Below, in pieces: positions 59,008 through 60,307 of a stretch of 64,000 bases of DNA (position 1 is the stretch's first letter; every line of letters starts with the position of its first letter). The position numbers and the translations under genes are program-made. The DNA comes from a bacterium (GTDB lineage: Bacteria; UBP6; UBA1177): assembly GCA_017961325.1 (NCBI GenBank), contig JAGCXM010000042.1:11623-75622 (forward strand). Reading direction: 5' to 3'. The notes beneath the pieces are model-generated. The model saw only the letters and a program-made list of their open reading frames with translations, was not told the DNA's origin and did no database searches.

Positions 59008-59679
59008 ATGATTCTATATCACGGATCAACGAAAATCATTGAGAAACCGACTCTTGTGGCAGGGAAAAAACACAATGACTACGGACAGGGATTCTACTGC
59101 ACAAAGGAGATCGAAGTCGCCAAAGAGTGGGCGTGCAGGGAAAACAGCAACGGTTTTGTCAACAAATACAGGCTGAAAAAAAGCGGGCTCAAAGTGCTCG
59201 ACATGCAGGATAAACGCTGCTCGGTCCTGAATTGGATCGCCGTTCTGCTGCAAAACAGGACTTTTTCGCTGGAAAACGAGATCGCAGCTGCGGCAAAAGA
59301 GTATATCGTGAACAACTTTGCAGTTGATACGGCTCCTTTTGATGTTGTTACTGGCTACCGCGCTGACGATTCCTATTTTTCTTTTGCCAGGGATTTCATC
59401 AACAATACTCTGCCGCTTGCAAGTCTGGAAAAGGCTATGCACCTGGGAAAACTCGGCATTCAGTACGTTCTTGTTTCGGAAAAAGCATTTACTCAGCTGA
59501 TTTTTACCGGAGCCGAAGCGGTCAGTTGTGAAACATATTTCCCGAAATATACGGCGCGTGACTCTGATGCAAGAGCGGCTTATAAAGAAGAGATCCGTCG
59601 TGCCGTGATATCTAAAAGTATTTTTGTGATGGATATTATCCGGGAGGGAATGAAAAATGGCGATCCGCGCATACAGTGA
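59008..59679 (+). CDS. DUF3990 protein with diphtheria-toxin-like H-Y-E ADP-ribosyltransferase N-terminal motif
   Basis: LYHGS ... GQGFYCT closely resembles diphtheria toxin SYHGT ... KGFYST (His21, Tyr65 context); GGAGG RBS. Confidence 0.65.
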   Translation: MILYHGSTKIIEKPTLVAGKKHNDYGQGFYCTKEIEVAKEWACRENSNGFVNKYRLKKSGLKVLDMQDKRCSVLNWIAVLLQNRTFSLENEIAAAAKEYIVNNFAVDTAPFDVVTGYRADDSYFSFARDFINNTLPLASLEKAMHLGKLGIQYVLVSEKAFTQLIFTGAEAVSCETYFPKYTARDSDARAAYKEEIRRAVISKSIFVMDIIREGMKNGDPRIQ

Positions 59680-60307
59680 AGACTATCTGGAGTGTGCGGC
59701 GACATCTCTTGCCGTGGCTTGCGATTATGCGGTGAATGTCTGCGGAATGAAACCCGACGATTTTGCCGATATTTTCGTAATATCCGGCGAAAGCGACAAA
59801 TTCGGGCGCGGAAATCCTTCGGTCGTTGCAGGAAAATCGGGGATAGAACTGGTTCGCTCAATTGTGGAAAAGGTCGATCCAAGCCGCGAACTTCCGGAAC
59901 CTGTGTTTTCCCAGGACCGCTCTCCTGAATACTGGGCAGGCTGGGCTTTGGCGCACTATCAGTGGCATTCGGCAAAGAGTTTCAAAACGGTTTTCGGCAA
60001 AGTTCCGCTTTCCGAGGTAATAAAAATGTATAAAGTCTATCACGAAATGGACATAACAGCTTTTATCGAGGCGATGGATAAAAAAATCGCGGAACGTTCT
60101 GTCAGCACAAATTTAAAGAACATCCGCGAAAACAGACAGTTTTCCCAGTCCGAACTTGCGGCTGCATCAGGCGTTCAGCTGCACTCGATCCAGCTTTACG
60201 AACAGAGAGTGAACGATATCGACAAAGCTCAGGCGCAGACTCTTTACAAACTTTCCGTCGCGCTGGGCTGCAAAATGGAAGACCTGCTTGAAAATCCGGC
60301 TAATTAA
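59657..60307 (+). CDS. DUF3791 protein with C-terminal XRE-type helix-turn-helix
   Basis: Overlaps DUF3990 gene by 23 nt with GGGAGGGA RBS; C-terminal HTH (FSQSELAAASGVQLHSIQLYEQ). Confidence 0.65.
   Translation: MAIRAYSEDYLECAATSLAVACDYAVNVCGMKPDDFADIFVISGESDKFGRGNPSVVAGKSGIELVRSIVEKVDPSRELPEPVFSQDRSPEYWAGWALAHYQWHSAKSFKTVFGKVPLSEVIKMYKVYHEMDITAFIEAMDKKIAERSVSTNLKNIRENRQFSQSELAAASGVQLHSIQLYEQRVNDIDKAQAQTLYKLSVALGCKMEDLLENPAN

Follow-up and report, generated by a model that had tools for sequence, protein, structure and literature searches.

Two overlapping genes, here called A and B, were analysed in a stretch of 64,000 nucleotides (nt) of bacterial DNA, the window (assembly GCA_017961325.1, contig JAGCXM010000042.1, positions 11,623 to 75,622 of the forward strand; lineage UBP6, UBA1177). 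They probably form a toxin-first type II toxin-antitoxin module, in which A would be a toxin of ADP-ribosyltransferase (ART) fold and B an antitoxin that represses its own operon. Gene A encodes a DUF3990 protein of 223 amino acids (aa) and gene B a 216-aa protein ending in an XRE-type helix-turn-helix (HTH); both resemble families of PDC-M42, a defence candidate of the PADLOC collection. Both open reading frames (ORFs), their overlap of 23 nt (59657-59679, both genes on the + strand), the separate Shine-Dalgarno sequence of B and the promoter hexamers just upstream of A were read from the sequence, in agreement with an earlier note on this DNA. The features are as follows, in window coordinates.

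58937-58942, + strand: promoter -35 hexamer TTGACA, read from the sequence
58947-58962, no strand: operator O1, perfect 16-bp palindrome TATCAT-TGTG-ATGATA, filling the promoter spacer and overlapping the -10 hexamer
58961-58966, + strand: promoter -10 hexamer TATAAA, 18 nt 3' of the -35 hexamer, read from the sequence
58973-58988, no strand: operator O2, degenerate palindrome TGTCAT-TGTG-GTGATA (two changes), between the -10 hexamer and the Shine-Dalgarno sequence of gene A
58995-59000, + strand: Shine-Dalgarno sequence AGGAGG of gene A, read from the sequence
59008-59679, + strand: gene A, 223-aa DUF3990 / PDC-M42A protein, predicted ART-fold toxin (profile searches, model, alignments)
59020-59022, 59095-59097 and 59341-59343: candidate active-site codons of gene A for His5, Tyr30 and Asp112 (further candidates Trp41 and Gln152)
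59642-59648, + strand: gene B Shine-Dalgarno sequence GGGAGGG, within the 3' end of A, 8 nt 5' of the B ATG
59657-60307, + strand: gene B, 216 aa, the ORF as placed in the earlier note
59657-60091, + strand: N-terminal all-helical domain of B (residues 1-145), PDC-M42B-like, predicted to neutralise the toxin
60110-60307, + strand: C-terminal XRE-type HTH of B (residues 152-212) plus stop, predicted autorepressor

In the proposed mechanism, A would be an intracellular enzyme using nicotinamide adenine dinucleotide (NAD+) to modify, and possibly deplete, an essential cellular component. With its start codon inside the end of A, B would be made whenever A is made; its N-terminal helical domain would bind and silence A, and its HTH, as a dimer, would bind the two 16-bp palindromes (TATCAT-N4-ATGATA) and keep the operon repressed. 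If B were lost or titrated, A would be released and growth would stop; possible triggers are loss of the DNA, proteolysis and phage infection. On balance, A is expected to be toxic and to be neutralised by the N-terminal domain of B.

The two genes form a constant unit. At least 592 related loci occurred in species-representative genomes, and the best 80 were analysed, with start positions placeable in 79. A preceded B in all 80, which came from four phyla (Bacillota, Bacteroidota, Spirochaetota and Actinomycetota). Hosts were mostly gut and rumen anaerobes, and included Lachnospiraceae, Oscillospiraceae, Christensenellaceae, Erysipelotrichaceae, Bacilli, Phascolarctobacterium, Bacteroidales, Treponema and Eggerthellaceae. 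In 78 of 79 loci the genes overlapped by 17, 20, 23, 35 or 38 nt, and their relative frame never changed; a GGAG-type Shine-Dalgarno sequence stood at the equivalent place before B in the related loci inspected. No conserved third gene followed B, either in the window or in the 80 loci. The invariable order, together with the HTH at the C-terminus of B, bears out the layout read by the earlier note, with the toxin first and a DNA-binding antitoxin or regulator after it. The closest of the listed relatives was a rumen Spirochaetales metagenome-assembled genome (L007, 96% protein identity). The module is horizontally mobile and moves between phyla as a two-gene unit.

Single-chain proteins in the sequence collections support a physical or functional link between A and B: one consists of the B N-terminal domain followed by DUF3990 (P0260), another of A fused to full-length B (P0346). 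Other DUF3990 architectures were also encountered, namely HTH_3, a linker and DUF3990 with no recognisable B domain (P0293), a non-HTH N-terminal extension before DUF3990 (P0285), and DUF3990 with a long C-terminal region that by eye is TnpB-type transposase-like, possibly a gene-call artefact (P0310).

Gene A matched Pfam DUF3990 (PF13151) with an E value of 9.5e-44 (149.2 bits against a cut-off of 32.2), over residues 1-165 and profile positions 1-151 of 152, and contained the motifs LYHGS (residues 3-7) and QGFYCT (residues 27-32), as the earlier note had described. DUF3990 is included in the Pfam ADP-ribosyltransferase clan (PMC7955679), and the ART assignment of the family is in this sense already public. 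An AlphaFold model of A based on 38 homologues was confident (mean predicted local distance difference test, pLDDT, 90; predicted template modelling score, pTM, 0.84). ART-fold proteins accounted for 14 of its 17 top PDB matches, each of them weak (E 0.04-1, template modelling score, TM, 0.3-0.4); they comprised MbcT, PARP4/1/2, tankyrases, a diphtheria-toxin homologue and an insecticidal toxin. No PDB chain was detectably related to A by sequence. Among predicted viral structures, six matches were obtained at E <= 0.001, and three viral matches annotated as ART-PolyVal or polyvalent ranged from 9e-5 to 5.5e-4; the Pfam ART-PolyVal family also matched A weakly (E 0.019). The model supports membership of A in the ART superfamily fold, as the earlier note had thought likely, and A is likely to be an NAD+-using enzyme of this fold.

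Profile alignment (hhalign, 71-homologue A profile) placed His5, Tyr30 and Trp41 of A onto H21, Y54 and Y65 of diphtheria toxin, H440, Y470 and Y481 of exotoxin A, and H862, Y896 and Y907 of PARP1. The reference sequences were entered by hand and the N-terminal part alone aligned with any confidence; the probability was 39% for diphtheria toxin, the best, and 1.6% for exotoxin A. As these are NAD-pocket residues, the comparison of the A motifs with the His and Tyr segments of diphtheria toxin and exotoxin A, made by eye in the earlier note, was sound. The label "diphtheria-toxin-like" does not hold at the level of the family: neither Diphtheria_C nor Exotox-A_cataly (Pfam, E <= 10) matched A, the nearest domains by structure were ART-PolyVal, and placement in the diphtheria toxin/exotoxin A family was rejected, the superfamily alone being common to both.

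The best single PDB match of the model was the RES toxin MbcT (6fkg_B, E 0.037), which brings in another reading of the chemistry, in which A would be an NAD+-consuming glycohydrolase or phosphorylase that kills by NAD+ depletion. ART-fold NAD+-degrading toxins paired with Xre-like-HTH antitoxins exist in the Xre-RES/MbcTA group. This reading is nevertheless improbable: the significant structural matches of A were to ART-PolyVal and not to RES, the Pfam scan of A returned no RES, DarT or other ART toxin-antitoxin family, and a His-Tyr-acid arrangement with a second aromatic residue 11 positions after the Tyr characterises the transferase clades (diphtheria toxin, PARP).

Conservation of the candidate active site of A was followed in 71 diverse sequences taken from 50%-identity clusters. 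Pro14, Asp112 and Asp120 were invariant, and His5, Gly6, Ser7, Tyr30, Thr32, Glu40, Trp41, Arg118, Gln152 and Arg184 were near-invariant, so that the NAD-pocket motif residues His5 and Tyr30 are kept almost throughout these homologues. The catalytic Glu of ART enzymes sits at the start of strand 5. At the strand-5 position of A the conserved acid is Asp112 and no conserved Glu occurs, a placement made by position and not by residue-level superposition; the conserved Glu40 lies on the helix after strand 2. When the classical 160-aa plasmid DUF3990 proteins were added, position 112 was Asp or Glu and position 120 was Asn or Gly. Asp112 is proposed as catalytic because it directly precedes strand 113-117 of the model and stays Asp or Glu in classical DUF3990; it is most likely the third catalytic residue in place of Glu, and the predicted site would be His5 - Tyr30/Trp41 - Asp112. 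The earlier assignment of A to the H-Y-E clade, with the Glu left to be located, thus holds for the His and the Tyr, while the Glu is probably replaced by Asp112. Asp120 or Asp121 of the GYRADD motif was considered as the catalytic acid and is less likely, since position 120 changes to Asn or Gly and 121 varies in classical DUF3990.

In one homologue (P0384, alignment A7), the NAD-pocket His5 is replaced by Arg (LYRGS), which the other major ART clade (R-S-E) uses there. Compared with classical DUF3990, the subfamily of A has two elements of its own, a helical insert at about residues 85-107 and an extension at the C-terminus (166-223). A has no N-terminal extension and no secretion or delivery domain, its NAD-pocket His being residue 5, and it would therefore have to act inside the producing cell.

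Gene B combines two domains. Residues 152-212 are an HTH of the XRE/Cro-C1 type (HTH_26 E 1.7e-6, HTH_3 E 9.9e-6), with TM of about 0.8 over the HTH to CylR2, P22 c2 and C.AhdI in Foldseek, in line with the earlier description; NCBIfam and Pfam MqsA gave weak, sub-threshold matches on the same HTH (23.8 bits against a cut-off of 61.8). Residues 1-145 form an all-helical domain (model pLDDT 86) with no Pfam family and no solved relative in sequence or structure searches. This domain matched PADLOC PDC-M42B over residues 4-137 (E 1.9e-5, 23 bits) and aligned over residues 4-141 with the 142-aa DUF3990 partner encoded on plasmid pTS1 of Treponema saccharophilum (hhalign probability 79%), which itself matched PDC-M42B at 2.9e-51. 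Trp93, Gly95 and His129 were invariant in 71 B sequences, and the domain also carries a conserved H-E-x-D motif. The DUF3791 identity given to B in the earlier note was rejected: neither B nor 70 homologues matched DUF3791 (PF12668) at E <= 10, profile-profile alignment (hhalign) of the B alignment with a 36-protein DUF3791 alignment gave a probability of 0.1%, and the sole likeness was a short [YF]xxLH[TE]xD motif, not significant.

The promoter region of the pair carries a well-defined candidate operator. The earlier note had seen two direct repeats flanking the promoter. These, TCATTGTGATGATA beginning at 58949 and TCATTGTGGTGATA beginning at 58975, are the sole exact matches in the window; with up to two mismatches four matches were observed, a number reached in none of 100 shuffles (mean 0.67). 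They are real but do not flank the promoter, being parts of the 16-bp palindromes O1, in the spacer and -10 hexamer, and O2, downstream, spaced 26 bp apart. In L007, the O2 copy is perfect. A promoter scan of the window did not list the A-B promoter, because the scan demands T at position 6 of the -10 hexamer.

An operator core (ATCR-N6-YGAT), sought within 130 nt upstream of A, was found in 69 of 79 loci, with two copies in 28; elsewhere in these loci its background frequency was 0.02 per 130 nt. With a looser site definition, 49 loci had two sites, and 25-28 bp was the modal spacing (26 of 49); smaller groups occurred at 37 bp and 51-55 bp, the classes corresponding to about 2.5, 3.5 and 5 helical turns. 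In 42 of 79 loci a TTGACA-like hexamer (up to one mismatch) preceded the operator by 1-5 nt, and the right arm of the operator ran into a TAnnnT -10 hexamer in 61 of 79; a protein bound there would therefore occlude RNA polymerase. The half-site followed residue 177 of B: Met occurred with TATCGT (ATCG) in 9 of 10 cases, and Ser, Asn or Ala with TATCAT (ATCA) in 44 of 49 (Fisher p = 1.4e-6, a test that ignores kinship among the loci). Other HTH variants of B paired with TATCAG, TAATAC or TACGTC sites. Because the operator is conserved, lies on the promoter and covaries with the HTH, there is strong indirect evidence, drawn from sequence comparison, that B binds the upstream palindromes, and B very likely represses the A-B operon through O1 and O2. 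The suggestion of the earlier note that the upstream repeats could be the operator is supported in the same way.

A more ordinary regulatory module was also considered, in which B would be a ligand-sensing transcription factor and A a non-toxic modifying enzyme tuning B or another target. The large conserved N-terminal domain of B, with its invariant Trp93, Gly95 and His129, could hold a ligand or catalytic site, and a fusion of HTH and DUF3990 exists (P0293). Such a role is very unlikely: the only conserved operator sites found were in the pair's own promoter, flanking sequence totalling about 740 kb contained the core at 112 other places (roughly 0.15 per kb), and the two-gene unit crosses phyla with no conserved third gene to regulate. 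Moreover, the same catalytic domain occupies the toxin position in Rhs effectors of type VI secretion systems (T6SS), where DUF3990 forms the C-terminal domain upstream of immunity genes and has no assigned function (PMC4524185, PMC10763514, PMC12165300). This position counts, indirectly and by analogy, for a toxin.

Several points weigh against the toxin-antitoxin module proposed here. The literature searched yielded no published experiment with a DUF3990 protein. Solved ART structures match A individually at the weak scores given above and none is a sequence relative, and Asp112 was assigned by its strand-5 position and conservation and not by structural superposition. Pairing and fusions are the only grounds for a contact between A and B; the fusions are gene calls in metagenomes, and frameshift artefacts could be among them. 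Proteins of the P0293 type, if truly partnerless, would be odd for an obligately lethal toxin. Kinship among the loci also bears on the covariation of residue 177 with the half-site.

Comparison with catalogued systems places the pair near PDC-M42, and its status as a defence candidate is in this respect already public. PDC-M42 is listed as a cassette of three families, the third being FAM_00360, with 72 RefSeq occurrences (bioRxiv 10.1101/2024.01.29.577857). An example is the pair of DUF3990 WP_002703464 and 142-aa WP_002703465 on pTS1 of T. saccharophilum. The toxin-first order, the 142-aa partner homologous to the B N-terminal domain, and the extended 210-230-aa DUF3990 subfamily are shared with the pair described here, A matching the PDC-M42A model at 1.6e-46 and the T. 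saccharophilum protein matching the same model at 3e-109. The pair differs in having two genes where three families are published, in the low score of B (23 bits), and in the additions of a C-terminal XRE HTH to B and of matching palindromic operators to the promoter. The HTH-fused partner and the defined operator are what is new here, within a catalogued but uncharacterised kind.

The classical arrangement DUF3791-DUF3990, with or without a small third gene, corresponds to PADLOC PDC-M13 and occurs on plasmids of Clostridium tetani, Clostridium botulinum and Bacteroides; these pairs adjoin parA or zeta-toxin genes on small plasmids of Clostridium and Bacteroides. It resembles the present pair in its small, overlapping, co-oriented genes on plasmids or mobile elements, and in the shared Leu3, Gly6, Pro14, Tyr30, Thr32, Trp41, Gly116 and Gln152, with Asp or Glu at 112. 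In contrast to A-B, its order is reversed, the partner lying upstream and overlapping by 4 nt. This partner consists of a DUF3791 domain of 60 aa, carries no HTH and is not detectably related to B, and the DUF3990 protein has 160 aa, with neither the helical insert nor the C-terminal extension. Homology was found between the small third gene of the Clostridium cassette and the N-terminal half of the Bacteroides "DUF3791" protein of 147 aa (L089 3488-3718, L091 2559-2792, L090 2561-3004), and the Bacteroides partner is therefore a fusion of the two small Clostridium partners.

In architecture, A-B is like MqsR-MqsA and HigBA, MqsRA being the closest analogue. In these systems the toxin gene comes first, the N-terminal domain of the antitoxin neutralises, and its C-terminal XRE HTH binds palindromes in its own promoter. 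Their toxins are ribonucleases (RNases), and the MqsA N-terminal domain is a zinc-binding CxxC domain, whereas A is predicted to be of ART fold and B has no CxxC zinc domain. In chemistry, the closest analogues are DarTG, ParST, Xre-RES/MbcTA and CmdTAC, each with an intracellular ART toxin and an adjacent cognate inhibitor; several systems of this group act in phage defence. B is neither a macrodomain (as DarG), nor an upstream DUF2384/Xre protein (as ParS and MbcA), nor chaperone-dependent (as CmdAC); DarT (DUF4433) and macrodomain families were absent from the Pfam matches of A and B, and the B N-terminal domain is all-helical. A-B belongs to none of the MqsRA, DarTG, ParST, MbcTA and CmdTAC families. 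By structure and sequence, the closest named family to A is ART-PolyVal, from polyvalent proteins of phages and conjugative elements. A shares with it, and with diphtheria toxin, exotoxin A and PARP, the fold, the H-G-[ST] and G-F-Y-x-T motifs and the aromatic residue 11 positions on. It differs from all of these as a stand-alone 223-aa protein with a dedicated partner and, probably, Asp as third catalytic residue; it also lacks translocation, receptor or delivery domains, and its sequence scores lie below every family threshold.

The window is chromosomal, as RNase P RNA, signal recognition particle RNA and transfer RNA (tRNA) genes are also encoded within the 64 kb. Upstream of the pair lies a repeat-bracketed AAA_14/DUF4143 ATPase gene (57590-58882, PADLOC PDC-S01), and downstream type I restriction-modification (R-M) genes, hsdS and hsdM. 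The earlier note had drawn attention to this position between ATPase and R-M system; it is real here and not conserved in related genomes. The module itself (about 58924-60300) keeps 90-92% DNA identity in all three close relatives (L007, L087 and L088). In L007 a GAF gene directly precedes it; in L087 and L088 a 426-aa gene and a different 167-aa gene precede it, and acetyltransferase and C_GCAxxG genes follow. Because these relatives keep the module with neither R-M genes nor ATPase, the two are recent arrivals at a variable spot and not partners of the pair. Two small ORFs after B, each with a good Shine-Dalgarno sequence, were considered as a third gene of the module and rejected, being 5' remnants of genes intact in relatives: the first (60321-60419, 32 aa) is the stub of a Hexapep acetyltransferase gene with an internal deletion, intact in L087, and the second (60416-60481, 21 aa) the stub of a C_GCAxxG_C_C gene cut by the type I R-M cassette, intact in L087 and L007.

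Immediate neighbours in the related loci were heterogeneous, with 135 Pfam families among 138 neighbouring proteins. AAA_14/DUF4143 (PDC-S01) ATPases (6), Fic or SoFic proteins (4), ATPase_2 (3), SIR2/ThsA (2), recombinases (2) and Avs2 (1) stood out. The PDC-S01 ATPase was the commonest neighbour, as in the window, by impression perhaps more often than the size of its family would lead one to expect. Conserved embedding in type I R-M was rejected, since no R-M family was among the frequent neighbours and the R-M genes of the window are a recent insertion. A phage-borne origin was likewise rejected: only 6 of 50,697 phage records matched, all of them "unverified" faecal contigs, and the best match carried bacterial housekeeping genes (prismane protein, isochorismatase, GNAT, TetR).

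Could the pair act primarily as an abortive-infection system against phages? B would then be removed or titrated, or host transcription shut off, and A would ADP-ribosylate a host or phage target; this would add a physiological role to the same molecular mechanism and not replace it. Two ART toxin systems, DarTG and CmdTAC, do act in phage defence. The matches of A and B to PDC-M42A and PDC-M42B point the same way, as do the position of the pair in the window between a PDC-S01 ATPase and type I R-M and the defence-type neighbours elsewhere (ATPases, Fic, SIR2 and Avs2 proteins). PDC systems were defined from genes lying inside BREX, DISARM or type I R-M systems, and in the source paper they are candidates only (bioRxiv 10.1101/2024.01.29.577857). 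Furthermore, the published PDC-M42 is a three-family cassette and no conserved third gene follows B here, and most neighbours of the pair are unrelated or housekeeping genes (phosphofructokinase, tRNA synthetase, yihA, thrB). The R-M and ATPase context is weak evidence for defence because related genomes carry the module with neither, the R-M genes being a recent insertion into the downstream gene. A primarily anti-phage function is thus a minority reading, and a phage-defence role of any kind is possible but doubtful and unsupported by conserved context.

For the toxin-antitoxin module itself, the findings concern a common element (at least 592 loci, four phyla) for which the searches found neither a solved structure nor a published assay in either family. 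If A is an active ART toxin, the pair would be a new toxin/immunity pair among the few ADP-ribosylating toxin-antitoxin and defence systems, and would offer a first clue to what the DUF3990 domains of T6SS Rhs effectors do. The definition of the operator is unusually sharp, with the half-site of a 16-bp palindrome tracking one recognition-helix residue, and the tracking of residue 177 offers a set of orthogonal repressor/operator pairs. A more far-reaching and rather unlikely possibility is that DUF3990 is a distinct His-Tyr-Asp branch of the ART enzymes with a new target, such as a nucleic acid or a translation component. The B N-terminal domain would then be a new immunity domain, either a plug of the NAD+ pocket or a new enzyme removing ADP-ribosyl groups, and the cassette a widespread growth-arrest system of gut and rumen anaerobes, triggered by phage or by the loss of plasmids.

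Traces of local rearrangement were observed around the module. Tandem repeats of 23 nt (AAATCCGCCAAWTTGCCAAAC) bracket the ATPase gene, with three units at 57486-57553 and two at 58881-58925, and occur nowhere else in the window as exact copies. In L087 and L088 these repeats come after the 426-aa gene, with a different gene in the place of the ATPase; in L007, both the repeats and the ATPase are absent. They resemble the junction of a cassette or a hot spot of recombination; integron attC identity was rejected, as judged by eye they do not fit attC core sites. A degraded second AAA_14/DUF4143-type ATPase (residues 226-371, in two frames, 26-48% identity to the intact copy) lies on the - strand at 54986-55421. 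The R-M cassette (60544-63371) encodes an HsdS of half size (220 aa, with a single target-recognition domain) and HsdM, followed by a DUF6680 gene, with no hsdR inside the window; the DUF6680 gene (62790-63371) has a GC content of about 0.32.

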